From Chitinophagales bacterium (lineage in GTDB: Bacteria > Bacteroidota > Bacteroidia > Chitinophagales > LD1): 64,000 nucleotides of DNA. How positions within the stretch are numbered: the stretch's first letter is position 1; each line of letters opens with the position of its first letter. The translations under genes and the position numbers were made by a program. The DNA lies in the NCBI GenBank assembly GCA_025057415.1, contig JANWXI010000002.1, positions 3,497 through 67,496 of the forward strand, read 5' to 3'. The notes under the pieces are model-generated. The model was given only the letters and a program-made list of their open reading frames with translations, was not told the origin of the DNA and made no database searches. Below, in pieces: positions 12,022 to 64,000 of the stretch.

Positions 12022-12083
12022 TAAAAGCAAAAAAATGCATGTACCAGATGTGTATGATTGTATTAAACGTGTATTTTTGGAAT

Positions 12084-14828: not shown

Positions 14829-14831
14829 ACG

Positions 14832-15809
14832 CTAGCGGGGAATGTCAATGGATTGGATAATCTGACTAATTACATCATCGGGGGAGACACCCTCCATTTC
14901 TTTTTCGGGCGAGAGAATGATGCGGTGACGCAATACGGGTTTTGCCACATAGAGGATGTCATCGGGGATTACGAAATCGCGTCCGCTCATGGCGGCAATG
15001 GCTTTGGAAGCATTGAGCAAAGCCAGCGAGGCGCGTGGTGAAGCGCCCAGAAAGAGCGACTGATGGTTGCGCGTAGCTGTAATGAGGCGCGCGATGAAGT
15101 GCATCAGCTTTTCGTCCACCACGAGATTTACCACTAATTTACGCAAACGCTCTATCTGCACGGTATCCAGCACGGGTTGCAGGGTGTTTACGGGTTTTTC
15201 GTTCCCTAACGCATTAAATTTTTCCAATATCTTTACTTCTTCCTGTTCGCTCGGATAGGGCACGATGATTTTAAAGAGGAAACGGTCTAACTGGGCTTCG
15301 GGTAACCGATATGTGCCTTCGTGCTCGATGGGGTTTTGCGTAGCCAATACCATAAAGGGGAATGGCATATTATACGTTACTCCATCGGCTGTAATCTGCC
15401 GTTCTTCCATCACTTCAAAGAGTGCCGACTGTGTTTTGGCGGGTGCGCGGTTTACTTCGTCAATTAAAATGATATTGCTGAATATGGGGCCATTTTTAAA
15501 CTGAAATTCTCCGAGCTTTGCGTTATAGACCGATGTGCCGATGATATCGCTCGGCATGAGGTCGGGTGTAAACTGAATGCGCGAAAAACCGGTGTTGATA
15601 CAACGCGCCAGTAACTTTGCCGTGAGGGTTTTAGCCACGCCGGGCACACCTTCGATGAGTACGTGACCATCCGAAAGCATGGAGGCAATGAGCAGTTGTA
15701 CCATTTCTTGTTGCCCTACCACGATTTTACCTATCTCGCGCTGTATGGCATGCACCGCGTTACTTAGCTCAGTAAGGTCGGTGCGTTGCTGAAATTGTAA
15801 TTCTTCCAT
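14832..15809 (-). CDS. MoxR-family AAA+ ATPase
   Basis: Walker A GVPGVAKT and Walker B ILIDEVNRAPAKTQSALFEVMEE. The 325-aa size is typical of MoxR. Confidence 0.9.
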   Translation of the reverse strand: MEELQFQQRTDLTELSNAVHAIQREIGKIVVGQQEMVQLLIASMLSDGHVLIEGVPGVAKTLTAKLLARCINTGFSRIQFTPDLMPSDIIGTSVYNAKLGEFQFKNGPIFSNIILIDEVNRAPAKTQSALFEVMEERQITADGVTYNMPFPFMVLATQNPIEHEGTYRLPEAQLDRFLFKIIVPYPSEQEEVKILEKFNALGNEKPVNTLQPVLDTVQIERLRKLVVNLVVDEKLMHFIARLITATRNHQSLFLGASPRASLALLNASKAIAAMSGRDFVIPDDILYVAKPVLRHRIILSPEKEMEGVSPDDVISQIIQSIDIPR

Positions 15810-41314: not shown

Positions 41315-41440
41315 CCGGGTGAGGGATGCGAGCGGAAAGCCCGCAGCCGCGCCCGCGCTTATAGCGCGGGCGCGGCGAGGACTTGAAGCGGGTCAGCCCG
41401 ACCCCGCCGCCTTGCAGCGCTTGGCGGCGGGGGCACCCCC
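41315..41440 (+). repeat. GC-rich double-hairpin intergenic repeat, copy 2
   Basis: Same element as 11870-12021, shorter. Central perfect 13-bp stem GCCGCGCCCGCGC-TTATA-GCGCGGGCGCGGC. Terminal stem CCCCGCCGCC / GGCGGCGGGG. Lies in the divergent intergenic region between the two halves of the cluster. Confidence 0.85.
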
Positions 41441-41557
41441 AAAAAAATATTAACCAGATTTACTTTGTGTTGCGTACAAAGGTTCAAGGGATAATTAGGA
41501 TGGGGAGTTTCTGATAGCGATAATTGATGAATAAGGATTATAGCGTATCTTTACCGC

Positions 41558-49278: not shown

Positions 49279-49316
49279 AGTATGGTTTGAGTAATTAGGA
49301 TAATTATATTTGGTAT

Positions 49317-50864
49317 GTGAATATTGTTCTCATACGCCCCCCAAAGTTAATGATTCGCGGCACACTTACTATGAAGCCGGTCGCGCCGCTGGGGCTTGCT
49401 TACATAGCTGCTGCAGCCGAGTCGGCAGGGCACAATGTTCGCGTAATTGATGCTATTGCCAATAATATTTGTGAATTCCATCCTACTGAATTAGGCAATG
49501 ATATTATCATTCAGGGAATGCGCCCCGAAGTTGTTGCAGAGTTAGTTCCTTGCGGCTCCAAAGTTATCGGTTTGAGTTGCATGTTCTCTAACAACTGGCT
49601 ATTGGATAGGCGGTTGATCAAAGTTTTGCGTAGTCGGTTTCCTGAAGCAGTGTTAATAGCAGGTGGAGAAAGCATTTCGGGGATGCCGGAATACGCACTG
49701 AAAGACAGTGAGTTAGACATTTGCGTGGTGGGTGAAGGAGAAGAAACATTTAAGGAAGTTTTATCGGCTATAGAAAATCAAATACCACTGGTTACAGTCA
49801 AAGGGATTGTATTCAAAAAAGATGGGAAAATCGTATTAAATCCGCGCAGGGAGCGTATTCGTCAATTAAATGATATACCCTACCCAGCGTGGCATTTTTT
49901 TCCTGTCAATGCTTATTTTGATAATCAAATTACATTGACACCTACCGAACGAAAAAGTTTGCCTACTTTAGCCACCCGGGGGTGTCCCTATACATGCACT
50001 TTCTGCAGCAGTCCTAACATGTGGACTACCAAATATAGCTTACGTAGTCCCGATAACATTCTTCAGGAAATGATTTATATGTATGAAAAATACGGTGTAA
50101 CTAATTTTGAATTGTTTGACCTCACGGCCATTATAAACCGACAATGGATACTGGAATTTTGCCGCTTACTGCAAAATTACCCGGTACATTTTACATGGCA
50201 AATGCCCGCAGGCACACGAAGTGAGGCCCTGTCTGAGGAAGTGATAAGGGAAATGGCTAAAGCAGGATGCACCAATATTACCTTCGCTCCTGAAAGCGGA
50301 AGTAAAAAAGTGTTACAACTTATTCAGAAAAAAGCCGACCCGGACAAGATGCTACCTGCAATGAAGTTGGCTTCACAACTTGGAATGTACGTTTACGTTA
50401 ACTCGATTATAGGTCTTCCAGGAGAAACCCACCGCGATATTTGGAAAAGTATGCTTTATCTTGCAAAAACGGCATTTGCCGGAGCACAAGATACGGGTAT
50501 GGCTGTTTTTATGCCATACCCGGGATCTGAGTTATTCAAACAATTTGAACAATATGGTCAATTATCGCTCTCCGACTCGTTTTTTTATGATATACTTTAC
50601 ACTGATTCTATCACAAAAAGTCAATTTTACAATAATAACATCCCTTCATTTATTTATCGTATTTATAACATTCTTTTATTAACTGTTTTTTATATAGTTT
50701 CTTACAGTAGTCATCCGTCAAGAATATACAAAAGTTTACGGAATGTAATCAAAAGACGGTATGTTACTCGTGGTGAAAGAGCTATCGGCTATCTAATGGA
50801 ACAATACTTTTCATTAAAAAAATCACCTGTCCATTCATTACACCAACCAGTATCTCACGTTTGA
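49317..50864 (+). CDS. B12-binding-domain radical SAM enzyme, family A paralog 4 (515 aa)
   Basis: GTG start. NIVLIRPPKLM...APLGLAYIAAAA...IDAIANN...VVGEGEET. ATRGCPYTCTFCSSPNMW. QMPAGTRSEAL. Confidence 0.85.
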   Translation: MNIVLIRPPKLMIRGTLTMKPVAPLGLAYIAAAAESAGHNVRVIDAIANNICEFHPTELGNDIIIQGMRPEVVAELVPCGSKVIGLSCMFSNNWLLDRRLIKVLRSRFPEAVLIAGGESISGMPEYALKDSELDICVVGEGEETFKEVLSAIENQIPLVTVKGIVFKKDGKIVLNPRRERIRQLNDIPYPAWHFFPVNAYFDNQITLTPTERKSLPTLATRGCPYTCTFCSSPNMWTTKYSLRSPDNILQEMIYMYEKYGVTNFELFDLTAIINRQWILEFCRLLQNYPVHFTWQMPAGTRSEALSEEVIREMAKAGCTNITFAPESGSKKVLQLIQKKADPDKMLPAMKLASQLGMYVYVNSIIGLPGETHRDIWKSMLYLAKTAFAGAQDTGMAVFMPYPGSELFKQFEQYGQLSLSDSFFYDILYTDSITKSQFYNNNIPSFIYRIYNILLLTVFYIVSYSSHPSRIYKSLRNVIKRRYVTRGERAIGYLMEQYFSLKKSPVHSLHQPVSHV

Positions 50865-51247
50865 ATATGCTTGAAAAATACCTTTGGATAATATACATAT
50901 CAATATCTTTATTAATCGGTGAATTTCACCCGTTTTCACTGTACAAGATGTATAACGCTTTTCCTGACAATGCCACAATCATTGTAGTAAAAAATGCCGA
51001 ATCGCATTTTATTCCCATAAGGGAACATTTACGTTGTCGTTCGGCTGATCTTACGCACAAATACTATGCGTATCGAAAACATTACGGTCAATCGGACTCA
51101 GCAGCTTTAGAATATTTATGCAAACAGCTACACACATATCGTATCTCTGCAATGCAAAGTGATTTACGATTGTGTCTCTTGAATCTTTATAAAATTCCAA
51201 ATCAGATTACTACAGAAACATTTTGCCGGCATGAAGCATGTCGCTGA
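50861..51247 (+). CDS. Hypothetical small protein with one N-terminal hydrophobic helix
   Basis: 128-aa ORF that overlaps the upstream rSAM gene by 4 nt and the downstream membrane-protein gene by 17 nt. No family recognised. Confidence 0.45.
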   Translation: MNMLEKYLWIIYISISLLIGEFHPFSLYKMYNAFPDNATIIVVKNAESHFIPIREHLRCRSADLTHKYYAYRKHYGQSDSAALEYLCKQLHTYRISAMQSDLRLCLLNLYKIPNQITTETFCRHEACR

Positions 51248-52094
51248 TTTATCAGATAGTGAAATAACGCTTTTTTGGTTCACTATTCGTTTATCATGGA
51301 GTGTAATACTTTGTGCTACATTAACCATATTTCTATTTCAGAGTAATCAGAATTTTTACCCCGAAGGTATTTTCCGATTTGTACCGATGAGTTTTTCGCT
51401 GCCGGTTTGGATGAAGGTATTAGCATCTATAATTATAAACGGTTGCGGGGTTGTGTATGTGTTGAACCGCAACATGAAATTGGTTGTGACTGTCTTAGCC
51501 GTATTGTCCTTTTTTGTTGTTTCATATCATGAGGCCAACGGCATTTATGCCCGCGCCACCATTCTGACAGCAATATGTATCGGACAAGCCATAGCTTTTT
51601 ATCAGAATGAGCGTAACTACCCGAATTCTGTAGCTTATAAAGCTATTAATTACTCAGTACAAATGATTGCTGCCGGCTACGTTTTGGCGGGCATTTCCAA
51701 GATTTATGAGTCAGGTTTAGGTTGGTTTTTAGATGTTGAGGGCTTTTGCCTGCAAATAATGAAAAATTTTTACTTTTTATATGCTGACACAGGGAATTCG
51801 GAATACCTGAATTACGCACAATCTATATATAACATTTTCTCCAATTATCCGTGGGTACCTGCTGCGATGTTGTTTGCTGCACTGCTGCTGGAGTTATTTT
51901 GTTTTGTGGTGGTTTATATGCCAAAACTTACCGTATGGTGGGGCATCGGTTTGCTGCTGATGCACCTGGGGATAGCTGTTCTGATGGGGATCGGTATTAG
52001 TGTGATCGCATTTCCGATGGTAATATTTTTTATTAACCCCGTGTATTATATCATTAGAGGGATTAAGAAACTTTCGGAGTGTAATGTCGTATAA
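51231..52094 (+). CDS. Polytopic membrane protein (unknown; possibly HTTM/DoxX-like)
   Basis: 287 aa with about 7 hydrophobic helices. The family assignment is only an impression. Confidence 0.45.
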   Translation: MKHVADLSDSEITLFWFTIRLSWSVILCATLTIFLFQSNQNFYPEGIFRFVPMSFSLPVWMKVLASIIINGCGVVYVLNRNMKLVVTVLAVLSFFVVSYHEANGIYARATILTAICIGQAIAFYQNERNYPNSVAYKAINYSVQMIAAGYVLAGISKIYESGLGWFLDVEGFCLQIMKNFYFLYADTGNSEYLNYAQSIYNIFSNYPWVPAAMLFAALLLELFCFVVVYMPKLTVWWGIGLLLMHLGIAVLMGIGISVIAFPMVIFFINPVYYIIRGIKKLSECNVV

Positions 52095-53019
52095 GTTCAA
52101 GCATTTCTTTTTCTGAGTAATCAAAGTATTTGTATGGCACTATCTCTTTTCTCCATAAAGTTTCATCCGGTTTGGAAATAAAATCATACGTGTAATAAAA
52201 CTCTTCCGTCACATAATATTTTTCGATTTGGTCAAGAGGCAGTTCCGGGTTACGGAAATAATACACCAACTGGTAGTTCTTACGTAGTACCGTCATGGTA
52301 ATGGCGTGACGGATTTCTGTACCGAGGTTGGGAGCGCTGGCATGGATACAAGCCGGGTCAAAAACAATCACATCACCCTTTTTGACGGTAACGGGGTGAG
52401 CATGCTTATAAAGTATAGGTATATAATTTTTGAACTGCCAGGGAACACCTAAGCTGCGTTGGGTATTACCCCACAGATGGCTGCCACTTACAAAAGATAC
52501 AACACCGTTTTCCATAGTTACATCGCAAAAGGGTATCCATACAAACAGGCAATAGTCGCTCTCTTCATCTATTACAGTAGAGTCCTGATGTATCAATAAG
52601 TCGCTGTTGGGATGAGGGGGTTTTACCTGAAAGGCGCCCCCGGTGTGTGTATCGGTTTTTTGCATATCAAACAAACGGGGCAGAATTACCGGGGCTAATT
52701 CATTGATTACCTGCTGTACTTTTTTCCGTATTTCAGGATTAAAAAGCCGTCCGCTGTTGAGCAAATGCTTATCTAATTCAAATCCGTCCAACTTTGAAAT
52801 TTCATCAAATGTTTGCATAAATCTGTCTATTTCATCCTGGCGGATTACCTGCTCAATTTTCACCCAACCGTACTGCAAGTATTTTGCGTGATGGTCGTCA
52901 TTGATAAAAAAACTATCCATGCGGATACGGTAATATTTATTCTCCTGCAAGGTTGGCAGACGGAGAGATGGTTTAAATATTTTTGTAATATAATTGATCA
53001 TTTTTGTAATTAACTCCAA
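52063..53019 (-). CDS. PhyH-family Fe(II)/2OG dioxygenase
   Basis: HxD in DLLIHQDSTVIDE and distal His in DPACIHASAPN. Confidence 0.75.
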   Translation of the reverse strand: MELITKMINYITKIFKPSLRLPTLQENKYYRIRMDSFFINDDHHAKYLQYGWVKIEQVIRQDEIDRFMQTFDEISKLDGFELDKHLLNSGRLFNPEIRKKVQQVINELAPVILPRLFDMQKTDTHTGGAFQVKPPHPNSDLLIHQDSTVIDEESDYCLFVWIPFCDVTMENGVVSFVSGSHLWGNTQRSLGVPWQFKNYIPILYKHAHPVTVKKGDVIVFDPACIHASAPNLGTEIRHAITMTVLRKNYQLVYYFRNPELPLDQIEKYYVTEEFYYTYDFISKPDETLWRKEIVPYKYFDYSEKEMLELIRHYTPKVS

Positions 53020-53837
53020 AAATATATACTTTTTTCATCTGTTGACAATGCTGCGAAACCACCCAATGTCACCCGCTCAGTGTCATGTGCTGCCGGTGGA
53101 ATAACTTTATGCCAATAGGTGCCTCCTTTAAACATCAATAAGCTGCCTGCCGGAGTTTCCACTACTTCATGTTTCATGGCTTCTTCAGCTATAATATTGC
53201 CGTTCGGGTCTTTTATGGTAAACTGACCTTCTTTAATGCAATTATCATAAATGCTGTCAGCCACCCATAGCTCACCCCCCTTGGACGGATTCCGCAAAGT
53301 GAAGTACCAGCTCAACATCGTATCTGGTAATATGTGTTGCCCTATCAAATTTCCCACTTCTTCGTGTATATAGGGCAACAGTTTACCGTCCTGATGCAAG
53401 TATAACCCTCCCTTGCCGGGTAACACTACCCGAAAACTATATGGCAAGAAACCTTGTAGAGGTCTTAGCTCAAAGGGTTTAAAATACATATAAATTTTAT
53501 TGACAATCCAACGGGTTACATCCGTGTTGCCCGCTTCATCTGCAGCATTCAGGAACGGTATTATGGTGTTAAAATAACGTTGTACTTCCTCCTTGGGTTT
53601 TGACCGATAAACAGAACCAAAAAGATAAGGAACAGAGTATCCATTGCCGTAATTGAGGTCAGCTATAAAATTTTCAGATGTGCGGTTCAGTATATTGAAT
53701 AAAAAATCAATATCATCAACCGATAATATATCCTCAACCACATAACCCGTAACTTCACATTGGATAATATGCCTTACATTGAATGGTGCATTACCATTCC
53801 GATGCGTGAATCGTTCAAAACGCAACATGTGATACAA
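53010..53837 (-). CDS. 2OG-Fe(II) oxygenase (prolyl-4-hydroxylase-like)
   Basis: HxD in GLYLHQDGK, distal His in GGTYWHKVIP and a downstream RVTLGGF (2OG-binding Arg context). Confidence 0.6.
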   Translation of the reverse strand: MYHMLRFERFTHRNGNAPFNVRHIIQCEVTGYVVEDILSVDDIDFLFNILNRTSENFIADLNYGNGYSVPYLFGSVYRSKPKEEVQRYFNTIIPFLNAADEAGNTDVTRWIVNKIYMYFKPFELRPLQGFLPYSFRVVLPGKGGLYLHQDGKLLPYIHEEVGNLIGQHILPDTMLSWYFTLRNPSKGGELWVADSIYDNCIKEGQFTIKDPNGNIIAEEAMKHEVVETPAGSLLMFKGGTYWHKVIPPAAHDTERVTLGGFAALSTDEKSIYFWS

Positions 53838-55500
53838 ATGTTGGTATATTACTGTTTAAGTGCCGTATTATTTCTTCATCGGTAATATCCAAAACTCTTT
53901 TAGGGACTTTGCGAATAACGTTTCCGAGTGGCTTACTCCCCGCCGCCAGGTCATCTAATCTGCCGAAGAGGTCATCCTCTGTTAATACATACTCATATAT
54001 GTGACTGTTTTCATGGTGATAATATACAGTTGGCGCTTCTTTGTGGCAAATGGCTGCCACAACAGCTACCCGTTCCTGATGACTGTGGTTCACACCCGAT
54101 CCGTGAAACAAGGCAGGGTGATACAGGACTACATCTCCGGGTTCGGCAGTGATTTCAATTACCCGATCACGTAATGGTTCAAAGGGGACAAAGCGAATAG
54201 GACAAGTACCTGAGCGATAGTTATGAAAAACTAAATGGGAACGCGGTATAACCGCGAGTGTGCCATTATGAGGCGAAACAGCTTGCAAAGGTATCCAGCA
54301 ATGAATGACCCCATATAACTCTTCCGGCACTATACTCCAGTCCTGATGCAAATTGAACAGACCGTCCGCTCCTGGCGTCTTGGCCGCATAATGACCTATG
54401 AGGGGTCTTATATTAACAAAATAGTTCTGTAAAAGGGGCTTGATGCAACTAAAAATCATTTCGCTGTGGCGCTTGTTAGTTTGAACATTTCGCTCATAAT
54501 GATGCGTTACAAACATGCCAGGTCCGGTAGTAAAATGACGATGGTAATTTTCTTTTAACTGTTCTATGATACTTGTGTCAAGCGCTCCACGAATATGTAC
54601 GTAACCCTCCAATTGAAATGTACGATGTGGCTCATCACTGCACAGAAGCCGATGAGTAAAACGATTTGAACGCCATGCCGCTTTTACTTCTGATACTTCG
54701 GGTGACATTTCCTCATGTGCGAATGTTTCTACGAGTTTCGATTCCTGTGGCAAGTGTGTATGGTATGTTCTGCTTAACATATCGCGAAAAGCCGCGGGTG
54801 TAAGTTGATATGCTCTGATTTCGTTGTCAAATCGTATGTAGTGATATATGGGGGATTTCTGATGTTTTAATATCAAGCGGAGCGCTGTAAAATCTACATT
54901 GGCCTGGTTAAGTTTTAAACAGTGAAATATTGCCTGGTGATAAGCCAGACACTGACCCGCCTCCATCGGCAGGTCGGTTCGCATTTCTTTTGGAATTTGC
55001 TCAAAAGGAATTCTGATTGTTTCCGAATTAGAAGAACGTATGCTCTCAATACCCTGATGTGTTCCTTCCAATAAAGCCATACAACCGTTCCCTTTGCATG
55101 TATCATTAAGCGGAATAAAACAGGTGATAAACGCATGTTCTTTCTCGTTGGTGTAACTCCATTCCTGGCGATAGGCATATTCCTCTAAAGTGTCTGCCTG
55201 ATGGATTAAATGCGCACTGTCAATTATTTCAAATTTTTCAAAATGTAACTCAAGGGCTGCACGAATAATTTCGATTGTTTCGTTTTCCAGATTTATTGGT
55301 CGGAATGCATCCGAAGCTACAGCATTATCGTTCAATACGTTAAAGTTGTGTGTTCTAATACTCACCTCTTTATGAAATGAGCTGAAAACTTCGCGTAATT
55401 TGGTCAACTGCAGGTCGTTCAACAGAGGTAGTAACACATATCCTTTTCCCAGAAATTCACATTCGGTCTTTTTATTTTTGAAAGGAGTTAACATAATCAA
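53815..55500 (-). CDS. Tandem di-domain PhyH-like protein (N-terminal domain with degenerate metal triad)
   Basis: 561 aa made of two PhyH-like halves. The C-terminal half has NLHQDWSIVPEE and LFHGSGVN. At the equivalent position the N-terminal half has YRQEWSYTNEKE (H->R, D->E), with IFHCLKLN retained. Confidence 0.65.
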   Translation of the reverse strand: MIMLTPFKNKKTECEFLGKGYVLLPLLNDLQLTKLREVFSSFHKEVSIRTHNFNVLNDNAVASDAFRPINLENETIEIIRAALELHFEKFEIIDSAHLIHQADTLEEYAYRQEWSYTNEKEHAFITCFIPLNDTCKGNGCMALLEGTHQGIESIRSSNSETIRIPFEQIPKEMRTDLPMEAGQCLAYHQAIFHCLKLNQANVDFTALRLILKHQKSPIYHYIRFDNEIRAYQLTPAAFRDMLSRTYHTHLPQESKLVETFAHEEMSPEVSEVKAAWRSNRFTHRLLCSDEPHRTFQLEGYVHIRGALDTSIIEQLKENYHRHFTTGPGMFVTHHYERNVQTNKRHSEMIFSCIKPLLQNYFVNIRPLIGHYAAKTPGADGLFNLHQDWSIVPEELYGVIHCWIPLQAVSPHNGTLAVIPRSHLVFHNYRSGTCPIRFVPFEPLRDRVIEITAEPGDVVLYHPALFHGSGVNHSHQERVAVVAAICHKEAPTVYYHHENSHIYEYVLTEDDLFGRLDDLAAGSKPLGNVIRKVPKRVLDITDEEIIRHLNSNIPTFVSHVAF

Positions 55501-56324
55501 ACGAATGGTTTTTGAATATCTGAAAGTGATAAATCTTCGGGGCGAATTGGTTGGAAGATAAAATCACTAATCGTATGTATGGGGGTATGAGTTTCAAAAA
55601 AGCTGCTGCTCTCAAAACGGAGCATTTCCTCTATAGAATCTATGACAAACTCGTAAAATGTCTTATCTCCCTCGTTCTTAGCAATAAAAATCTTTACTTT
55701 CTGGTGGTTTGGCACCATTATCAAAGTAGCTGCAATGCGCGGTGATGCCGAAGCATTAGCAGAGGATAAATGCAGTAAACGATGGTCATATACGATGGCC
55801 TCTCCGGCTTTTAATGGTACATATTGTACAAATCGGTCAGCAATTTCCCGTGCATACTTTCGATAAGTATCGGTAATGTTAATTCCCCGTATTTGATTGA
55901 CTACCCGGTGTGAACCCGGCACAAGTCCCAAAGTTGAGTTTTGCTGATCCGTGTCAGATAACGGCGCCCAGATGTTAAGTGATATATCTGTCTCCTCGTT
56001 CACATATCGCCAATCGGCATGTAGCGGCATCTCCGGCTCTCCGGGTGGTTTTGTAAAAAAATTACCCCAGAAGGGAATATGATATCGAAATAAATTTTCA
56101 ATAGCGGGTCGAAAAATTTCTTTGATGCCCTCATCCACTTTTTTGCGGTAAGTATAATCTTGGCGCATGAATGTGGTAAAAGGAGCTTTTGTAGAACTAT
56201 GAATCTCTGCGTAAAGATTTTTCAGCCGTTTAATATGTGGTTCCGGTAATAAACGGATTTTTACATAACCGAGTTCTGACAATGCGGTGTTTAGCTTGTC
56301 ATCGAAAAAAACATTGTGTATCAT
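55497..56324 (-). CDS. PhyH-family Fe(II)/2OG dioxygenase
   Basis: HxD in PLHADWRYVNEE and distal His in RLLHLSSAN. Confidence 0.75.
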   Translation of the reverse strand: MIHNVFFDDKLNTALSELGYVKIRLLPEPHIKRLKNLYAEIHSSTKAPFTTFMRQDYTYRKKVDEGIKEIFRPAIENLFRYHIPFWGNFFTKPPGEPEMPLHADWRYVNEETDISLNIWAPLSDTDQQNSTLGLVPGSHRVVNQIRGINITDTYRKYAREIADRFVQYVPLKAGEAIVYDHRLLHLSSANASASPRIAATLIMVPNHQKVKIFIAKNEGDKTFYEFVIDSIEEMLRFESSSFFETHTPIHTISDFIFQPIRPEDLSLSDIQKPFV

Positions 56325-57172
56325 AAAACAGGGTGCAATTCACTTTTGTGCACTTCCTTTTCTAACCATTGTATAATTTGCTGTTGTGTCAGCAGCGGAG
56401 GCGAGTAAGAGAACTTTTTGTATATGGGGAAACGGTGATCCTGATTACCCCATGCGTTTTCAAAAAAGAAAGTATAGGGAACTTCATATACCGTTACCAT
56501 GTTATCCGAAGGGCTATGGTAGTAGTAATACAGTTTCGCTTCCGGGTGTAACAATCCAAAATGTACTACGGGTCTGGGGTGTTTTGACCGGTTATCAGGA
56601 GAACCATGTAGTACTTTGTCGCCATAAACCACTAAATCCCCTGCTTTGGCATCTATAACATCGCAATATTTCAGTAGCATCGGCTCATATTCCAGATATG
56701 GCCAAACAGTATTGTGGGGCAACGGGTAATCAAAAAACTTATGACTTTTTCTTAAAACGTAAAGTTGCCCGTTTTCAGGTGTAGTATCAACTATCGGTAA
56801 CCAGATGTTTTGATAGGAAAACTCCGGTTCATCTTGCACACTGAAATCGCGGTGTAAGGTCACAGTGCTTTTTTCATTTGGGTTTTTGACTAGAAAAGTC
56901 GCAGCAGGGCACACATAGTTGGTAATATGCTCATCTAAGCGGGGCTTAACGATTTTAAGTATCTGGTCGCTGAGGTTAGCTGAAACATCATGGGGGATGT
57001 CGCATAAACTGTTCCACATGGTGGACGGCCAACCCTCACGAGGGTAATGTTGCTCAAATAACAAGCGAAGTTGCGTGATTTCGTCCCTGTTGAGCACGTT
57101 GCGGAGTAATACATATCCGTTTTCTTCATAACTTTCCTGTACGGCGGGGTCAATAAAGCGGGCAGTTTTCAT
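56321..57172 (-). CDS. PhyH-family Fe(II)/2OG dioxygenase
   Basis: HxD in TLHRDFSVQDE and distal His in DKVLHGSPDN. Confidence 0.75.
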   Translation of the reverse strand: MKTARFIDPAVQESYEENGYVLLRNVLNRDEITQLRLLFEQHYPREGWPSTMWNSLCDIPHDVSANLSDQILKIVKPRLDEHITNYVCPAATFLVKNPNEKSTVTLHRDFSVQDEPEFSYQNIWLPIVDTTPENGQLYVLRKSHKFFDYPLPHNTVWPYLEYEPMLLKYCDVIDAKAGDLVVYGDKVLHGSPDNRSKHPRPVVHFGLLHPEAKLYYYYHSPSDNMVTVYEVPYTFFFENAWGNQDHRFPIYKKFSYSPPLLTQQQIIQWLEKEVHKSELHPVL

Positions 57173-57267
57173 ATATTCATATTTTTATCAATGTAATTTT
57201 ACGATAAAATTATCGCTACCGCTAATATAGCAATTTGATTTTTATTTTTCTATTTGCATTAGATGAT

Positions 57268-58287
57268 ATGCGTCATTCCATTAATATGCACGTATGTTTG
57301 GCCGGTTACGGTTACTGGGGGAAAAACCTCCTCCGCAACCTCATTGAAACCCTTAGCGCTGACCGTATCAGTGTTGCAGAAATTATGCCCGAAAAGCGCG
57401 CTCAACTTAAACGACAATACCCTAATATTACCTGTTACGACTCTTTTGAAGATGCATTAGCTCAAAACCACAGCGCTGCCTTTGTAATCGCAACCGAAAC
57501 ACGCTACCATTATGACCATGCCCGCAAAGCGCTCCTCGCCGGCAAACACGTACTGGTAGAAAAACCCCTTACTACTTCCGTGGCGCAGGCAAAAGAGCTG
57601 TGCCGCATTGCAAAAGAGCGTGGGCTTATCTTAATGGTTGACCACATTTTCCGTTATCATCCGGTAGTGTGGAAAATGAAGGAATACTTCCGGGAAGATT
57701 ATCTCGGCCCCATTCATTATATGGATGCCACACGGGTAAACCTGGGTATTTATCAGGAAGATGTCAACGTACTTTGGGATCTTGCCTGTCACGACCTGAG
57801 TATTATCCAGTTTTTAGTTAATGAAAAACCTACATCGGTGAGAGCCATCGGCCGCATCAACCCTGAGCACGGCTCTGAAGACGTTGCTTACCTGTTTCTT
57901 TATTATCCATCCGGCATGCTGGTACAAATAAATTCTTCCTGGGCAAGTCCGGTAAAAATCCGCAAGATGATAGTGGGCGGTGAAAAACGCATGATGATTT
58001 ATGACGATATAGAGCCCACCAACAAACTCACCATTTATGAGTACGAGCCAAACATCCAACGCGATGAAAACAAAACCAAACTTACGGACTATCGCCTCGG
58101 AAATATCATTATCCCGAAAATTGAGCAGGGCGAAGCTCTGCGAAATGTAATCGTTGAGTTTTTGGAGTGTATTCAATGTGCGAAACAACCCGCTTCAGAC
58201 GGTTACAACGCCCTGGAAATCATCAATATTTTAGAAAAAGCACAACAATCTTTATCATTGGACGGAGCTATTGTCCCTTTACCTTGA
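57268..58287 (+). CDS. Gfo/Idh/MocA-family NAD(P)-dependent sugar oxidoreductase
   Basis: Rossmann N-terminus HVCLAGYGYWGKNLLRNL, plus the HVLVEKPL and FRYHP blocks typical of the family. Start uncertain: ATG 57268 or 57286 rather than the listed TTG 57235. Confidence 0.8.
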   Translation: MRHSINMHVCLAGYGYWGKNLLRNLIETLSADRISVAEIMPEKRAQLKRQYPNITCYDSFEDALAQNHSAAFVIATETRYHYDHARKALLAGKHVLVEKPLTTSVAQAKELCRIAKERGLILMVDHIFRYHPVVWKMKEYFREDYLGPIHYMDATRVNLGIYQEDVNVLWDLACHDLSIIQFLVNEKPTSVRAIGRINPEHGSEDVAYLFLYYPSGMLVQINSSWASPVKIRKMIVGGEKRMMIYDDIEPTNKLTIYEYEPNIQRDENKTKLTDYRLGNIIIPKIEQGEALRNVIVEFLECIQCAKQPASDGYNALEIINILEKAQQSLSLDGAIVPLP

Positions 58288-58979
58288 ACTACTCGTTTAT
58301 TATCTTTTGTTACAATGAAGAACACAACCTTATCCGTGTATATGAGCGGTTGAAAGCATTTTGCTCTCGTAGTCATTCAGAGCACGAAATCATTATTGTG
58401 GATGACGGTAGCACGGATGGTACTCCGGACATATGTAAAAAGTTAAAAGAAGAAAACCCGGGTATAATAGTGATTACTCATGCCGTTAATGCTGGTATAG
58501 GATTGGCATTGCGGAGTGGTTACGAAGCTGCTACACGCGAATACGTATGCGCCATTCCGGGCGATGGACAATTCGATATTGAGGAGTTGAATGCCGTACG
58601 TCCCTTTACAAAAGAAACATTCTACTCCTTCTACCGCCCGCAAACTAATTACAACTCATATCGCAAACTACTCACCTGGTTGAATCGTCTTTTTAATCAA
58701 CATATTCTTGGGCTTTACCTTCGCGATGTGAACTGGGTAAAAGTTTACCGCCGCGAGCATTTGATGATAACAGCGCCTGTGTTAAGAAGTTCTCTGATTG
58801 AAAGTGAAATATGTGCCAAGCTAAATCGAATGGGCATCATGCCCATAGAAATTCCATCGGTATATCATCCCCGCCAATCCGGCAAAGCAAAAGGGGGCAG
58901 CTGGAATACGCTTCGCAAAGCCCTTGCCGAAACGCTCAAATTATGGTGGTTAGTAGTTACATTTAAACCCCGAAAATGA
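58284..58979 (+). CDS. Family 2 glycosyltransferase (polyprenyl-phosphate sugar synthase-like)
   Basis: YSFIIFCYNEEHNL...IIIVDDGSTDGT...IPGDGQFD. The start is proposed at TTG 58284, which overlaps the upstream TGA (TTGA). The listed upstream 39 codons overlap the oxidoreductase gene. Confidence 0.75.
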   Translation: MNYSFIIFCYNEEHNLIRVYERLKAFCSRSHSEHEIIIVDDGSTDGTPDICKKLKEENPGIIVITHAVNAGIGLALRSGYEAATREYVCAIPGDGQFDIEELNAVRPFTKETFYSFYRPQTNYNSYRKLLTWLNRLFNQHILGLYLRDVNWVKVYRREHLMITAPVLRSSLIESEICAKLNRMGIMPIEIPSVYHPRQSGKAKGGSWNTLRKALAETLKLWWLVVTFKPRK

Positions 58980-59803
58980 AACTCGCCCTCGCCCAACTCC
59001 TTGTGGAAGGAACTGAGCCCGAGCGCAACTTTGAGCGTGCCGAAAAGCTTATCGCCCGCGCAGCTTCTGCCGCCTGCCAGCTCACCCTGCTGCCCGAAAC
59101 AATCGACTTCGCCTGGACACACCCCGATGGCATCCGCCACGCAAAACCCATCCCCGGTGAATACAGCGACCACTTTTGTCTGTTGGCAAAAAAATATAAT
59201 ATGTGGATTTGCGTGGGGTTGACTGAAAAAACTTCGCATGGCAACTACAATACAGCCGTATTAATTGACAACAACGGCAACCTTGTCGGTCTGCACCGAA
59301 AAATCAATCTCCTTACGGTAGAGTTTCCGTACTACCTCGTGGGCCAGAAGTTAGAGGTTTACGATACTCCATTTGGGAAAATAGGCATGAATATTTGTGC
59401 CGATAATTATCTGGATGCCTTAGATATAGGCCATGTGCTTGCGCGCATGGGCGCGCAGCTCATCCTCTCTCCGTCTTCATGGACAGTCAACCACTCGGTA
59501 ACTGAAGCTGAAGACCCCTATCGCGATAAATGGATAAAACCCTTCAGCGTGCTCGCCAGGGCACACGGGCTGGTGATAGCCAGCGCCACGAGCGTGGGAT
59601 ACATCGTGGGCGGCCCGTACGAAGGAAAGAAAATGGTGGGTTGTTCCCTGTGTGTAGGCCCGCAAGGGATAATCGCACAAGGCATGTTCAACGAGTTTGC
59701 CGGTGATTTAGCCATTGCCGAATTCGACATGCCACAGCGCCCGCTCAAAGGCACCCAAATCGGTGAAGCATTGCGCAGTCAGGGCTTTAAGTTCTATAAT
59801 TGA
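58976..59803 (+). CDS. Carbon-nitrogen hydrolase (nitrilase superfamily)
   Basis: Glu-Lys-Cys triad contexts: LTLLPET, GLHRKINL and GMNICADN. Confidence 0.8.
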   Translation: MKLALAQLLVEGTEPERNFERAEKLIARAASAACQLTLLPETIDFAWTHPDGIRHAKPIPGEYSDHFCLLAKKYNMWICVGLTEKTSHGNYNTAVLIDNNGNLVGLHRKINLLTVEFPYYLVGQKLEVYDTPFGKIGMNICADNYLDALDIGHVLARMGAQLILSPSSWTVNHSVTEAEDPYRDKWIKPFSVLARAHGLVIASATSVGYIVGGPYEGKKMVGCSLCVGPQGIIAQGMFNEFAGDLAIAEFDMPQRPLKGTQIGEALRSQGFKFYN

Positions 59804-59806
59804 CGC

Positions 59807-61003
59807 ATGAGTGAGGGGGTTATTGTTAATGGCATACTTAAGAAAATCCCGTACCGGCGCTGTGTGCGCTGCATCAGCGACACTACTTGTCCCGGCATCA
59901 CCTTCGATAATAACGGAGTGTGCAACTTTTGCCACCTGCACGACAAGTGGTGTCGCATGTATCCGAATGACGAGCGCGGGCAGCAAATCTGGAACAACAC
60001 GCTAAAGAAAATTAAGCGCGATGGGCGTGGCAAAAAATACGATTGCATCGTGGGCATCAGCGGGGGCCGCGATAGTTCGTATGTGCTTCACCTTGCGGTT
60101 ACCAAATACCAACTGCGCCCCCTGGCTGTTCACTTCAACGATGGCTTCGACAACCCCGTGGCGGGCGAAAATATGGTAAACATCACCCGCAAACTGGGCG
60201 TGGACCTGCGCACCATCACCAGCGACTGGCGCGAAGCCAAAGACCTGAAAATCTCTTTCCTGAAAGCGAGCGTGCCCGACCTTAACCAGGGCACCGATGT
60301 AGGCATTGCAGCCGCCTGTTACGGAGTGGCATGCAAAGAAGGTTTAAAACACATCATCTACGGGCAATCGTTCCGCACCGAAGGTATAAAACCCATAAGC
60401 TGGGCGTATATGGTGGGCGATTACCTCAACGATGTGCAAAATAAATTCGGAACCGTAAAGCTGCGCCCCTGGAAGCCCGAAGACCCCAACTATCATTTCG
60501 GGTGGAAACAACTCTTCTATTACAGTTTCATAAAAGGCATTCGCGCATACTCTCCGTTGTATTACGAGAAATACATCCGCCGCGAGGCAGAAGAAATTTT
60601 AAAGCGCGAGTACAATTGGGTGTATCCGGGTGCGCATTACTACGATGATTTATACTGGTCGCTGATTACCTATGTTCACCGCGTAAAATTCAACATTGAC
60701 TTTCGCCTCAACGCATACAGCGCTCTTATTCGCGATGGACAAATGGACCGCGACTGGGCGCTGGAGGCCGTCAAAAAACCCTATGTGATGGAAGACCCGC
60801 GCATCATAGACCTTTGCCTGAAACGCCTTGCCGTTTCGCGCGAGGATTTTGAAGCATGGCTGCGCCTGCCCCCTAAAACCTTCCGCGATTACAACACCGG
60901 CTATTCACTGATGTGGCGCCTGCGCCCGCTCATCAAGCTCATCAGCAAGCTGGGCTTTTTCCCCGAAATTGTTTACGACAAATACTTTTTGTGTGGCGAA
61001 TGA
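59807..61003 (+). CDS. N-acetyl-sugar amidotransferase (WbpG-like PP-loop ATPase)
   Basis: N-terminal Cys pairs CVRCISDTT...GVCNFCHLHD. PP-loop CIVGISGGRDSSY. The overall length is typical of the LPS-biosynthesis WbpG family as I recall it. Confidence 0.75.
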   Translation: MSEGVIVNGILKKIPYRRCVRCISDTTCPGITFDNNGVCNFCHLHDKWCRMYPNDERGQQIWNNTLKKIKRDGRGKKYDCIVGISGGRDSSYVLHLAVTKYQLRPLAVHFNDGFDNPVAGENMVNITRKLGVDLRTITSDWREAKDLKISFLKASVPDLNQGTDVGIAAACYGVACKEGLKHIIYGQSFRTEGIKPISWAYMVGDYLNDVQNKFGTVKLRPWKPEDPNYHFGWKQLFYYSFIKGIRAYSPLYYEKYIRREAEEILKREYNWVYPGAHYYDDLYWSLITYVHRVKFNIDFRLNAYSALIRDGQMDRDWALEAVKKPYVMEDPRIIDLCLKRLAVSREDFEAWLRLPPKTFRDYNTGYSLMWRLRPLIKLISKLGFFPEIVYDKYFLCGE

Positions 61004-62630
61004 AAAATACATCTTAGGCATCAACGGAGGCGTGCGCCCCGGTTATCAGGACGTATCGGCTGTGCTCTTGCGCGGCGGCAGCATCGTAGCCGCTGTGGAG
61101 GAAGAGCGCCTCAACCGCATCAAGCACGCCCCGGGCCAATTGCCCATACTCGCTGTAAAAGAAGTGTTACGCATTGCGGGCATACATATCACCGATGTTT
61201 CTACACTCGCATTTCACGGCAGCACCTGGCAGCCGGCTATTGAAGACATATTAAAAAATCATTTCACAAGTTATTTCGGCCATTGTCCCCCCATCCGGCG
61301 CTTTCATCATCACGATTGCCACGCGGCATCGGCTTACTACGCCTCGGGTTTTGACGAAGCCCTCATCCTCACCGTTGACGGCTCCGGTGACGGCATCAGT
61401 ACCCAGGTAGCTGTTGGCAGGCACGGTACGCTGCAAGTGCTCGAACGCTACGCCCGCCCGCAGAGTTTGGGTTTGTTTTATTCTATGATAACACAGATCT
61501 GCGGCTTCACACGTGATATGGACGAGTACAAACTCATGGGCTTAGCCGCCTTTGGTAAACCAACTCCCGAACGGCTGGAGGCGCTGCTGCAAATCACCGA
61601 TAGCGGCTATCGCCTCAACGAAGCATACCTCGTACCTATCCTTCCCGGCCAACCCGGTCCCTCGCGCTACGAAATGCTCTACACTGAAAAATTGCTCCAA
61701 CTCACAGGCACAAAACGCAGAACCGATACACACATCACAGATGAATACAAAAACCTGGCCGCCTCGGCACAATTCTTACTGGAGCAGGCGCTGTGTGCCA
61801 TTGTAAAAAAATATGTGCGCGAAACCGGCATCCGAAAAATCTGTATGGCAGGAGGCGTAGCGCTCAATTGCCTCGCCAACATGAAAATTGAACAACTACA
61901 CGAAGTAGATGAACTGTTCATTCAGCCCGCCGCAAGCGATGCGGGCATATCGCTCGGGGCAGCGTACCTTGCCGCGGCAGAGCAGGGCATCACACAGTTT
62001 GAAAAACAAACCCACGTGTTTTACGGCAGCGAATACAGCGATGATGAAATTGCCCGTGTGCTGCAAAGCTGCGCCTGCAAAGCCCAACGCGAACCCGACA
62101 TCACCGATGCTGCTGCCCGGGCGCTCGCGCAAAAAAAAGTCATCGGATGGTTCCAGGGGCGCATGGAGTTTGGTCCCCGCGCCCTCGGCAACCGCAGCAT
62201 CCTGGCAGACCCGGCAACACCCGACATACAATCTATCGTCAACCAAAAAATCAAATTCCGCGAGAGCTTCCGCCCCTTTGGCGCAAGCGTCCTGCAGGAC
62301 GACTTCCACCGCTACTTCATCGCCAGATGCACCGAAGCGCCATACATGACAAAAGTTTTTCATGTAAAAGAACCATACCGCGCGCTCCTGCGCGGCGTGA
62401 CCCATGCCGATGGCACCTGCCGCGTCCAAACCGTCACCGACAGCCAAAATCCCCTCTACGCCCGCCTGCTGCGCGCCTTCAAATCCCTCACCGGCCACAG
62501 CGTACTCCTCAACACCAGCTACAACCTCAGCCACGAACCCATCGTCTGCACCCCGCGCCACGCCATCGCATCCTTCTGCGCCAGCGGCTTAGACGAACTC
62601 TTCCTTGGCACATACCGCCTCACAAAATAA
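60993..62630 (+). CDS. NodU/CmcH-family carbamoyltransferase
   Basis: ILGINGG...DVSAVLL...VAAVEEERLNRIKH N-terminus, HHHDCHAASAYY, and C-terminal MEFGPRALGNRSILADP and NTSYNL blocks. Start is either GTG 60993 or TTG 60969. Confidence 0.85.
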   Translation: MANEKYILGINGGVRPGYQDVSAVLLRGGSIVAAVEEERLNRIKHAPGQLPILAVKEVLRIAGIHITDVSTLAFHGSTWQPAIEDILKNHFTSYFGHCPPIRRFHHHDCHAASAYYASGFDEALILTVDGSGDGISTQVAVGRHGTLQVLERYARPQSLGLFYSMITQICGFTRDMDEYKLMGLAAFGKPTPERLEALLQITDSGYRLNEAYLVPILPGQPGPSRYEMLYTEKLLQLTGTKRRTDTHITDEYKNLAASAQFLLEQALCAIVKKYVRETGIRKICMAGGVALNCLANMKIEQLHEVDELFIQPAASDAGISLGAAYLAAAEQGITQFEKQTHVFYGSEYSDDEIARVLQSCACKAQREPDITDAAARALAQKKVIGWFQGRMEFGPRALGNRSILADPATPDIQSIVNQKIKFRESFRPFGASVLQDDFHRYFIARCTEAPYMTKVFHVKEPYRALLRGVTHADGTCRVQTVTDSQNPLYARLLRAFKSLTGHSVLLNTSYNLSHEPIVCTPRHAIASFCASGLDELFLGTYRLTK

Positions 62631-62714
62631 CCCCGCCCTAACCCCATAGCGCGCCCGCAGCGCACCATCATCCCTCGCTAAGCTCTCAGCTCTTCCTCTT
62701 TTCATTTTTATTAT

Positions 62715-62868
62715 GGGGTGCCCCCGCTGCCAAGCGATGCAAGGCAGCGGGGTCGGGCTGGCTACGGGGTGCGCTGTCGCTCCCGCCCCGCCCGCAATTG
62801 GTTTGTTTTTTCAGCGGTACGGGCGGGGCCGCTTCGCTGCGCTCGCGCCCTGCGCATCCCTCACCCGG
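62715..62868 (-). repeat. GC-rich double-hairpin intergenic repeat, copy 3 (inverted)
   Basis: Its reverse complement aligns with 11870-12021 over its full length. Central stem GCCCCGCCCG / CGGGCGGGGC and terminal stem CCCCGCTGCC / GGCAGCGGGG. It sits at the junction between the GC-rich end of the cluster and the AT-rich RT segment. Confidence 0.85.
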
Positions 62869-62968
62869 GTATCAGCAAGCGACCAGACATCCAGAATTGC
62901 GGCTCTTATCCGCCCGACCCATTATTTTAGGATTTAGTTACGCATCCATCTAGATACTAAAATGTAAG

Positions 62969-62976
62969 TATGTTTG
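62969..62976 (+). promoter_or_regulatory. Candidate Bacteroidota -7 promoter element (TAnnTTTG) upstream of the RT gene
   Basis: TATGTTTG lies 178 nt upstream of the RT ATG, which implies a long untranslated leader. Confidence 0.3.
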
Positions 62977-63153
62977 GGTTTACAAGATATGAGTAAAATC
63001 TTCCTTAATTGCTATATGTATGTATAAAGGCGGTTTATAGGGTTTTTCTGGAGTTTTTACGCAACTAAGGTTGATGATTTATGGTTATTGCCTAGATTTG
63101 GGTGTTATAGGCAAGCTTAAAAGACTACATCCGATAACATTTAACAATAACGA

Positions 63154-64000
63154 ATGACAAGAATTTTAGACCTTAATCATACAGACGTAAGACAATTTTT
63201 TCTTAAAGCAGAAAGCTATTTCAACTTTGATCTTCCAAAATATTTTGTGTTTGAAAATTTATTGCAAGCTGTTTCCAATTATATCAGTGGACAAGAACTT
63301 TCAACTTTTTATTCTACATACACTAACAGTCAAGGACAAACCAAAAGACATTCTCCAGCAACCTTTGAAGATGTTAACTATAAATTCTTAAATAATAAAG
63401 ATGGAAAATTTGCTTGGCGACTATTACAACTAATACACCCAGCACTGTATATTTCACTAGTAAACAAAATCACTGAACAAGCTAATTGGAATTTAATTGT
63501 GAATCGGTTTGCTCAGTTTCAAGATAATCCAAAAATAAGATGTTACAGCATTCCATTACGTTCGGATGATCAACAGTCTGATAAAGCGACCTCAATTAGT
63601 CAATGGTGGCATGAAATTGAACAACAGTCATTGGAACTAGCATTGAAATACGAATATGTTTTACATACAGACATTTCAGACTGTTATGGCTCAATTTACA
63701 CACACTCAATACCTTGGGCCATTCATACAAAATCCGTAGCAAAAGCACATAGAAGAGACCAAAATCTCATTGGAAACATTATTGATAAACATTTGCAAGA
63801 AATGGCTTTTGGTCAAACAAATGGAATACCACAGGGAAGTGTTTTAATGGATTTTATAGCAGAAATTGTTCTTGGATATGCAGACTTAAAGTTATCACGC
63901 AGAATAGAGCAACACAACTTGCAGGACTATGAAATAATCAGATATAGAGATGATTATAGAATTTTTTCAAACAATCCCCAAACGGTCGAACATATTGCCA
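63154..64000 (+). CDS. Reverse transcriptase, Abi/UG-type (defence-associated-like), 3' end outside window
   Basis: Not in the supplied ORF track because there is no stop codon in the window. From ATG 63154 I translated 282 codons without a stop. N-terminal KAESYFNFDLPKYF and KDGKFAWRLLQLIHP. Motif A-like HTDISDCYGSIYTHSI, motif B-like NGIPQGSVLMDFIAEIVL and motif C IIRYRDDYRIF (YxDD). Confidence 0.85.
   Translation, partial: MTRILDLNHTDVRQFFLKAESYFNFDLPKYFVFENLLQAVSNYISGQELSTFYSTYTNSQGQTKRHSPATFEDVNYKFLNNKDGKFAWRLLQLIHPALYISLVNKITEQANWNLIVNRFAQFQDNPKIRCYSIPLRSDDQQSDKATSISQWWHEIEQQSLELALKYEYVLHTDISDCYGSIYTHSIPWAIHTKSVAKAHRRDQNLIGNIIDKHLQEMAFGQTNGIPQGSVLMDFIAEIVLGYADLKLSRRIEQHNLQDYEIIRYRDDYRIFSNNPQTVEHIA

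Follow-up and report, generated by a model that had tools for sequence, protein, structure and literature searches.

The questions raised by this locus are what kind of reverse transcriptase (RT) is encoded at its right-hand edge and by what vehicle the gene was brought there. The locus lies at the end of a stretch of 64,000 nt from a Chitinophagales bacterium (GenBank assembly GCA_025057415.1, contig JANWXI010000002.1, positions 3,497 to 67,496 of the forward strand), and this whole stretch is referred to as the window. An open reading frame (ORF) begins at position 63154 and proceeds on the forward strand for 282 codons without a stop to position 64000, where it runs off the window. The first-pass annotation of the window, made from the sequence, had noted this ORF and its three RT palm motifs, and translation agrees with it: DISDCYGSI is found at residues 173–181, NGIPQGSVLMDF at 223–234, and RYRDDYRIF at 263–271, and HTDISDCY, NGIPQGS, and RYRDDY are all carried. 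The ORF had been omitted from the list of ORFs because it reaches the window end, as that annotation had supposed. Taken as a whole, the data are best explained, with high confidence, by an intact enzyme of the Abi-P2 (abortive infection) family that is carried as an integron-type cassette.

The start at position 63154 is considered real because an in-frame TAA is located 6 nt 5′ of the ATG and the predicted N-terminus agrees with the N-termini of homologues, MT[RK]ILDLN. At ~33% GC, where ~7.5% of random codons are stops, simple arithmetic gives a probability of ~3e-10 for 282 open codons; a chance origin is thus excluded, and the translation also finds 1793 database homologues at E≤1e-10. 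The window includes the 5′ 55% of the gene. The contig extension proposed earlier was provided by a 165-kb contig of a Chitinophagales metagenome-assembled genome (GCA_033583875.1, JAVQYR010000001.1; designated L013), which was found via an exact match of an upstream gene for a 398-aa protein. L013 differs from the window by 6 mismatches in 14,194 nt, with none in the RT gene, and the window position equals the L013 position + 49806. In L013, the RT gene is intact, with no frameshift or premature stop, and encodes 512 aa (13348–14886, equivalent to 63154–64692 of the window); it is followed by a BNR gene and rho. The two assemblies of the organism encode an identical RT protein, which is labelled by NCBI only as 'RNA-directed DNA polymerase'. 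Among the GTDB species representatives there was no exact self-match, and the closest relative is 87% identical.

As judged by homology along its full length, the RT is an intact member of a known family, Abi-P2, which belongs to class 1 of the UG (unknown group)/Abi RTs. It had been held that the class could not be assigned from the fragment; however, the 282-aa fragment alone matches the PADLOC AbiP2 hidden Markov model (HMM) with E=3.8e-129 and 430 bits, as compared with 163 bits for the runner-up, UG14. The 512-aa protein gives E=3.6e-210 and 697 bits over model positions 4–487 of 489. Residues 2–500 align with the crystal structure of E. coli Abi-P2 (PDB 7R08) with E=2e-92, and residues ~305–500, encoded in the L013 part outside the window, form a helical (alphaRep/HEAT-like) domain that matches the helical domain of 7R08. 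In an AlphaFold2 model (28 family members; pLDDT 86.8, pTM 0.84), an RT-like N-terminal lobe is followed by a C-terminal lobe that is all-helical from residue 307 on. The top Foldseek match of this model is 7R08 (E=1.5e-26, ~520 columns), and the next is DRT4/UG15 (2.7e-11), DRT standing for defence-associated RT. The TM-score to 7R08 is modest, 0.51, with full-length coverage, which is probably due to a different relative orientation of the two lobes in the model. The type members of the family, P2-EC30 and P2-EC58, share ~35% identity with the RT over 98% of the length, and homologues on plasmids share 36–42%.

The residues that would be responsible for priming and catalysis, Tyr30, Asp173, Asp266, and Asp267, are all encoded within the window (Table 1). 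DNA synthesis by E. coli Abi-P2 is template-free and is lost in the Y61F variant but kept in Y46F, and Tyr61 is located on the loop between fingers helices α2 and α3 (Figiel et al., PMC9508834). In both phmmer and MAFFT alignments, Tyr30 (in DLPKYFVF) corresponds to Tyr61 (in ELPAYINF of 7R08); the numbering was taken from the 7R08 SEQRES index and agrees with both tyrosines named in that study. The dispensable Tyr46 corresponds to Phe15 in the window RT. Tyr30 is invariant in 118 of the 118 homologues covering the column and, in the AlphaFold2 model, lies in loop 23–33 between helices 19–22 and 34–44. In an alignment of 120 homologues, Asp173 is invariant in 122/122 sequences, and Asp266 and Asp267 are also invariant.

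The borders of the unit that includes the RT gene were defined by comparison with related loci. Nucleotide similarity with six independent loci starts at one base, G63104, 50 nt before the ATG, and similarity between loci stops ~20 nt past the RT stop codon. The left border is G|TTATGGGCAAGC in the relatives and GTTATAGGC in the window. In the relatives, this border 9-mer is also the last part of the attC-like site before it, and the site of the RT itself begins with the reverse complement of the 9-mer, GCCCATAAC, which is followed by a ~135-nt imperfect palindrome that ends with ...AAAC(C/G)GTTA in most close relatives. Using an HMM built from the relatives' sites, an attC-like site (GCCCATAAC...GTTAnnnnn) was found to start exactly 8 nt after the RT stop in 19 of the 37 loci. 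The sites occur only on the RT strand and form arrays of two to seven (e.g. five in L033, four in L021, and seven in L026). Many cassettes delimited by them are 0.7–2.2 kb long and mostly include a single ORF, and the RT cassette is ~1.74 kb.

The stems of the attC-like sites show double-sided changes in 14 of 15 predicted pairs, and 83% of the cells are paired as compared with 58% in shuffled alignments (a value not reached in any of 500). Covariation is scored at 0.59, and slid registers give ≤0.15. Furthermore, the bases that follow GTTA in one site are reverse-complementary to the first bases of the site that comes next at 86 of 100 variable positions, whereas the agreement with R″ of the same site is just 52/100; none of 10,000 permutations reached 86/100, and 14 of 20 consecutive site pairs match at all five positions (5/5). 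Circular-cassette recombination at G|TT, which yields such a permutation rule, is the defining behaviour of integron attC × att recombination. Co-oriented arrays, covarying stems, and complementarity of R′ with the next R″ thus make up the signature of integron attC sites and, as judged by these features of the DNA, the RT is carried as a single-gene integron-type cassette both here and in related Bacteroidota.

A different interpretation of the ~135-nt palindromes is that they are not attC sites but repeats similar to repetitive extragenic palindromic (REP) sequences or miniature inverted-repeat transposable elements (MITEs), terminators, or Xer (pdif-type) modules that flank the RT by chance. 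Points in its favour are the length of the sites, an R/L spacing that is not quite the one seen in class 1 attCs, the lack of an integrase in searches near the arrays, and the report in the IntegronFinder 2.0 study that Bacteroidetes are almost devoid of integrons, with In0 only earlier and one complete integron in Salinibacter (PMC9024848); one review counts Bacteroidota among the integron-bearing phyla. However, REP elements, MITEs, and terminators do not yield complementarity between the GTTA tail of one site and the start of the next, and the rule that connects R′ with the next R″ requires circular intermediates with a G|TT crossover. The sites are strictly co-oriented with the ORFs, starting 8 nt after stops, and their ...AAC/GTT... 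ends are kept while the stems covary. Modules of the pdif type have 28-bp sites in alternating orientation. An origin of the palindromes other than as attC sites is therefore considered improbable.

In the window genome itself, the cassette is found in a decayed state. As the first-pass annotation had stated, the setting is AT-rich: GC falls from ~0.60 to ~0.30 near position 62900 and is low throughout the RT gene. The RT attC includes R″ GCACATAAC (L013 14894–14902) and six further attC bases, and then is interrupted by ~268 nt of unique sequence. This stretch has neither terminal inverted repeats nor a credible ORF, and was rejected as a MITE or insertion sequence (IS). It may be either an insertion into attC or the result of a deletion-fusion with an ORF-less neighbour cassette, the R″ of which would be AGGCACAAC. 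The remainder of the site is followed after 21 nt by the start of the BNR gene, which ends 12 nt before a second, more decayed attC-like site and which is thus itself a cassette. In the BNR cassette site, the AAC triplet is mutated to ATC. Downstream of the RT are the BNR gene, rho (from L013 16891), and proteins with tails typical of the type IX secretion system (T9SS). The BNR protein has a below-threshold Pfam match to Tli3, an immunity family of the type VI secretion system (T6SS).

The window locus is therefore a fossilised array of two cassettes, RT and BNR, located without an integrase between a biosynthetic gene cluster and rho. The description of the locus as a defence islet was loosely right, in that the low-GC segment is the remnant of this array, though none of the six neighbouring proteins matched a PADLOC model, and the candidate interpretation as a defence island was rejected. 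The context of a P2 prophage was likewise rejected, since phage relatives are limited to the P2-like type members, which are 35% identical, and a tRNA search found none in the window. The 208-nt AT-rich leader to the left of the cassette was considered as a decayed attC or attI and rejected, as it gave no nhmmer --max signal and has no homologue in any locus. Two −7-like boxes of the Bacteroidota type, TAnnTTTG, are found in this region at 62969–62976 and 63093–63100; the latter reads TAGATTTG and has a TTG 19 nt upstream. By its match to the consensus, the box at 63093–63100, just outside the cassette border, is a candidate resident promoter that could serve the promoterless cassette. By analogy with insertions observed elsewhere, the locus may plausibly have originated by insertion through an integrase at a genomic GWT ('attG') site, followed by expression from a resident promoter. 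Given that the attC sites are decayed and the RT attC is interrupted, the RT gene is probably now fixed in place.

Several observations weigh against the proposed reading. No IntI-like ORF was found by tblastn at E≤10 in the 64-kb window and the fetched flanks of 38 loci (up to 10 kb where contigs allow) with IntI1 as the query, and no ORF of ≥100 aa in the same sequences includes a tyrosine-recombinase motif. The recombinase is thus postulated, the term integron refers here to DNA sites, and the arrays qualify only as CALIN/SALIN-like (clusters of attC sites or single attC sites lacking an integrase), as no integrase was found nearby. In 18 of the 37 loci, mostly those of more distant relatives, no site of this HMM family is present. 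In the window genome, no attC or attI was found by nhmmer --max to the left of the RT cassette, the RT attC is broken, and the decayed R′ and R″, GTTATAGGC and GCACATAAC, are complementary at just 7 of 9 positions. The proposed promoter is a consensus match only. Finally, as the identity with the E. coli enzyme is ~35%, the window RT may differ from the latter in oligomeric state, in the length of its product, and in the range of phages.

The state of the flanking DNA might also mean that the RT is a decaying remnant, i.e. a fossil cassette whose expression or function has been lost in the window genome. The decay of the flanking recombination sites, including the interruption of the RT attC, and the lack of an integron platform or Pc promoter upstream would be in agreement with this view, and degraded RT copies exist elsewhere. 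In L037 (10001–11536), the gene is frameshifted and split over frames 2, 3, and 2, and in L038 (Flavobacterium inviolabile CP058278.1; 10001–10891) the RT ends after residue 295, and nothing is left of its C-terminal part; such copies explain several ~300-aa 'homologues' on long contigs. The window RT, however, has a complete ORF of 512 aa in which every invariant residue is kept, its protein is identical in the two assemblies, and candidate Bacteroidota −7 boxes are located upstream. As compared with four close relatives, dN/dS (the ratio of nonsynonymous to synonymous substitution rates) is 0.13–0.18 in the N- and C-terminal halves alike, which points to a gene under purifying selection, although these values mostly record the history before the arrival of the cassette in the window genome. 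Loss of function of the RT in this genome is accordingly regarded as having a low probability.

Still less probable is the assignment of the RT to another stand-alone RT of class 1 UG/Abi, such as DRT4/UG15, DRT6, UG14, AbiK, or AbiA, which would imply similar chemistry but a different family, oligomer, and triggers. The PADLOC HMMs for UG14, Drt6, Drt4, and AbiK give significant though much weaker matches to the full protein (179, 171, 159, and 107 bits, respectively) than AbiP2, which is matched over the full model, and Foldseek matches to DRT4, UG15, DRT6, AbiK, and AbiA are between 1e-11 and 1e-6. Whereas 7R08 is matched from end to end, alignments with AbiK (E=8e-11, residues 169–315) and DRT4/UG15 (E~4e-9) are confined to the RT core (~89–315), and those with DRT3b and group II RTs likewise cover the core only. 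None of the NCBIfam models for Drt4, Drt3b, group II RT/maturase, Drt5, retron St85, and Drt3a comes near its cut-off (for Drt4, 112 bits against a cut-off of 450).

The first-pass annotation had regarded the RT as a stand-alone enzyme of the defence-type Abi/UG group and not one of a group II intron, a retron, or a diversity-generating retroelement (DGR), and the HMM, structure, and Rfam results bear this out. No Rfam family matched the whole window at the gathering threshold, and none, including intron domains, retron msr/msd, and the non-coding RNAs (ncRNAs) of DRT systems, was found at E≤1 over L013 12800–17000. Pfam gives the generic RVT_1 domain only. Thus, a templated retroelement whose RNA partner has been missed (group II maturase, retron, DGR, or ncRNA-dependent DRT2/DRT3/DRT9) could be suggested by RVT_1 and by weak NCBIfam matches to group II RT/maturase (TIGR04416; 38.5 bits against a cut-off of 300) and retron St85 RT (26 against 235), but is hardly credible given that these scores are below cut-off, that no RNA was found by Rfam, that the conserved mobile unit has room for just 49 nt before the ORF and 8 nt after it, and that the C-terminus matches the helical domain of Abi-P2 and not a thumb/X domain. 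A group II intron RT/maturase is contradicted by the first, second, and last of these results, and a retron RT by the low score, the lack of a retron RNA in Rfam searches, and the 49-nt upstream unit.

A protein partner was not found either. The neighbours of the RT differ from locus to locus, and an all-against-all comparison of the ORFs of the 37 loci gave as recurrent families only histidine kinases and ABC proteins, which are generic paralogues and were rejected as a recombinase or partner. AbiP2 has been described as a stand-alone multi-domain protein (PMC9226505), and, as judged from the comparison of loci and the Rfam searches, the RT is a stand-alone system as well, with no conserved partner gene or ncRNA. 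Since the mobile unit consists of the gene, the 49-nt leader, and attC, no ncRNA or partner gene would be needed.

As regards the enzymology, oligomeric state, anti-phage phenotype, recombinase, and promoter, we infer the following. The RT would act as a single-protein abortive-infection system, in which RT-like fingers and palm are fused to a C-terminal helical domain that replaces the template. By analogy with the Abi-P2 of E. coli and the AbiK of L. lactis, a trimeric or hexameric form of the protein is most likely. The hydroxyl group of Tyr30 would serve as the primer and Asp173, Asp266, and Asp267 as the catalytic triad, giving rise to a long untemplated single-stranded DNA (ssDNA) that is covalently attached to the protein and held by the helical domain, as in the characterised homologues. 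By the same analogy, this DNA-synthesis activity would abort infection by certain phages; the abortive-infection phenotype of the P2-EC30 Abi-P2 is against phage T5. The gene, the 49-nt leader, and attC would be moved together as a circular cassette by a postulated recombinase acting at G|TT, and expression of the RT is probably driven by a promoter in the AT-rich DNA to the left.

The features of the locus are listed in Table 1.

Table 1. Features of the RT locus. Positions are those of the window unless L013 is specified.
Feature	Position	Strand	Remarks
N-terminal 282 codons of the Abi-P2 RT, fingers and palm through motif C	63154..64000	+	Assigned from translation, PADLOC AbiP2, 7R08, and AlphaFold2/Foldseek
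Tyr30 codon, predicted protein-priming tyrosine	63241..63243	+	Aligns with Tyr61 of E. coli Abi-P2
Asp173 codon, motif A catalytic Asp (HTDISDCY)	63670..63672	+	Aligns with D192 of 7R08
Asp266-Asp267 codons, motif C catalytic pair (RYRDDY)	63949..63954	+	Invariant in all sequences covering the columns
Left cassette border, core-site (R′) remnant G|TTATAGGC	63104..63112	+	Start of homology; consensus of relatives G|TTATGGGC
Cassette leader (5′ untranslated region), 49 nt	63105..63153	+	Conserved with relatives; includes a decayed ...TTAAAAGACGACAC... box
AT-rich leader, 208 nt	62896-63103	+	Between the GC-rich repeat and the cassette; matched nowhere in the compared loci
attC-like site, remainder after the interruption	L013 15172-15304	+	E=5e-12
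BNR/sialidase-like repeat protein, 351 aa, itself a cassette	L013 15325-16380 (window-equivalent 65131-66186)		Bracketed by two attC-like sites
attC-like site, more decayed	L013 16392-16516	+	E=6e-5
GC-rich intergenic repeat, ~160 nt, two hairpins	62711-62868; copies 11870-12024 and 41394-41453 (partial)	+; copies -
Natural-product-like gene cluster upstream of the RT	~49300-62630 (L013 1-12824)

The RT resembles Abi-P2 of P2-EC30/P2-EC58 (7R08) in HMM family, end-to-end alignment, predicted fold, and size (~510 aa), as well as in the two-lobe architecture of RT and helical domains, the priming tyrosine, the triad of aspartates, and the organisation as a single stand-alone gene. It differs in sequence, being ~35% identical, in its host, which belongs to Chitinophagales and not to Enterobacteriaceae, and in the vehicle, which is an integron-type cassette, whereas the documented locations of AbiP2 are plasmids and the hypervariable region of P2 prophages; the paper that classified UG/Abi RTs does not mention integrons (PMC9226505). 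AbiK and AbiA, which also belong to class 1 UG/Abi, have RT-like and helical domains and confer abortive infection by protein-primed template-independent ssDNA synthesis (PMC9508834). AbiK of L. lactis (PDB 7R06/7R07) shares this domain organisation with the window RT, but the similarity is limited to the RT core, AbiK forms hexamers, and its priming residue, Tyr44, is not equivalent in position; in AbiA, a HEPN domain is present in addition. DRT4/UG15 and DRT6 are likewise single-gene defence RTs of class 1 UG/Abi and are the next-best structural matches, but have HMM scores of 159–171 bits as compared with 697 for AbiP2. DRT4 too makes random ssDNA without a template (PMC12783706). Apart from its divergence (~35% identity), the enzyme itself is ordinary for its defence family, which has been characterised structurally.

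As to the vehicle, attC-bounded defence genes in arrays of mixed cargo, including restriction and toxin-immunity genes, are known as phage-defence integron cassettes in mobile integrons (bacteriophage resistance integron cassettes, BRiCs) and in the sedentary chromosomal integrons of Vibrio (10.1101/2024.07.02.601719, 10.1101/2024.07.02.601686). These studies describe Proteobacteria with an adjacent IntI and very small 'streamlined' systems and mention no RT, whereas RT cassettes of the window type are ~1.74 kb, occur in Bacteroidota hosts, and have ~135-nt attCs and no integrase nearby. Insertion at attG (Loot et al., 10.1101/2022.09.11.507474) gives solo or short runs of cassettes outside a platform, with a ...G|TT left junction lacking attI or attC, as at the window locus, and expression would in both cases depend on a nearby resident promoter. 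It was shown experimentally for IntI1 only, in E. coli and V. cholerae, and is for the window locus just a plausible history.

In the literature searched, coverage of which was incomplete, no paper paired 'integron' with 'Abi-P2' or 'AbiP2'. The cassette vehicle therefore appears to be unreported for Abi-P2 in that literature, but is of a known type. It is tentatively proposed that an Abi-P2 clade circulates among Bacteroidota, i.e. at least in Chitinophagales and Flavobacteriales and on many unbinned soil and freshwater contigs, as a ~1.74-kb cassette, in arrays with unusually long (~135-nt), highly similar attCs and no adjacent integrase. If this is true, the pool of integron cassettes includes RT-based defence systems, and a cassette system that has been under-recognised exists in Bacteroidota, with a recombinase that is trans-acting or still to be identified. 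The context would link RT-type abortive-infection genes to integron-style cassette exchange, and it exposes attC arrays where integrons are considered rare, which raises the question of which recombinase moves the cassettes. In addition, a Bacteroidota Abi-P2 whose minimal mobile unit holds only the gene gives independent support to the view that Abi-P2 works without an RNA template or a partner.

The cargo beside the RT cassettes includes Mrr, a C5 DNA methylase, Barstar, a weak match to the RES domain, a cation efflux protein, a flavin oxidoreductase, and several proteins of no known function. The Mrr type IV restriction enzyme (PADLOC 302 bits) is encoded directly upstream of the RT cassette in L021 (8594–9508), and the C5 cytosine DNA methylase, the Barstar-like immunity protein, and the weak RES-domain protein are encoded in L026 (3119–4090), L033 (3295–3831), and L026 (1714–2871), respectively. 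Several other cassette proteins that have no Pfam or PADLOC match are candidates for new defence functions. With such restriction, methylase, toxin-immunity, and uncharacterised genes, the attC arrays are a source of cargo for defence screening.

Unrelated cassettes share further features at their 5′ ends. CAA or TAA follows right after the 9-nt R′, and a loose box, (A/G)ACGAC(A/G)C, is present ~15–25 nt past the G|TT crossover in L001, L009, L020, L021, L022, L026, L031, and L033; in the window it is decayed, at 63120–63132. The exact 7-mer ACGACAC was found in 10 of 45 distinct cassette 5′ ends, as compared with 39 occurrences in 460 kb overall. The box could be an extended recombinase-binding region or a 5′-UTR signal. 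Very large ORFs in L016 (5672–8332, 886 aa) and L021 (155–7660, 2501 aa) terminate shortly before the arrays' first attC-like site and are either unusually large cassettes or markers of the array boundary. In eight loci (L002, L003, L004, L009, L010, L020, L022, and L027), the RT is located within 50–400 nt of a contig end, many assemblies being broken shortly upstream of the RT; this end in at least L003, L004, L009, and L027 falls in or beside an attC-like site. This suggests that near-identical attC repeats fragment short-read assemblies, so that the arrays, and an integrase located at a distance if there is one, are hidden.

To the left of the AT-rich leader, the first-pass annotation had reported a repeat element directly before the RT. 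The repeat is real, but is unrelated to the RT unit, the left border of which is at G63104; as a dispersed intergenic double hairpin located 236 nt outside this border, it was rejected as a part of the RT system. Its hairpins are formed by CCCCGCTGCC...GGCAGCGGGG and CCGCCCCGCCCG...CGGGCGGGGC, and the copies show compensatory changes in both stems, for which reason the repeat is considered REP-like. L014, a Logan assembly of this strain, is broken within the repeat. The natural-product-like gene cluster further upstream encodes a B12/radical SAM enzyme, five dioxygenases of the PhyH family, a WelO5-like halogenase or hydroxylase, a GFO/IDH/MocA oxidoreductase, a GT2 glycosyltransferase, a CN hydrolase, and a carbamoyltransferase, together with the 398-aa protein, which has no Pfam match.

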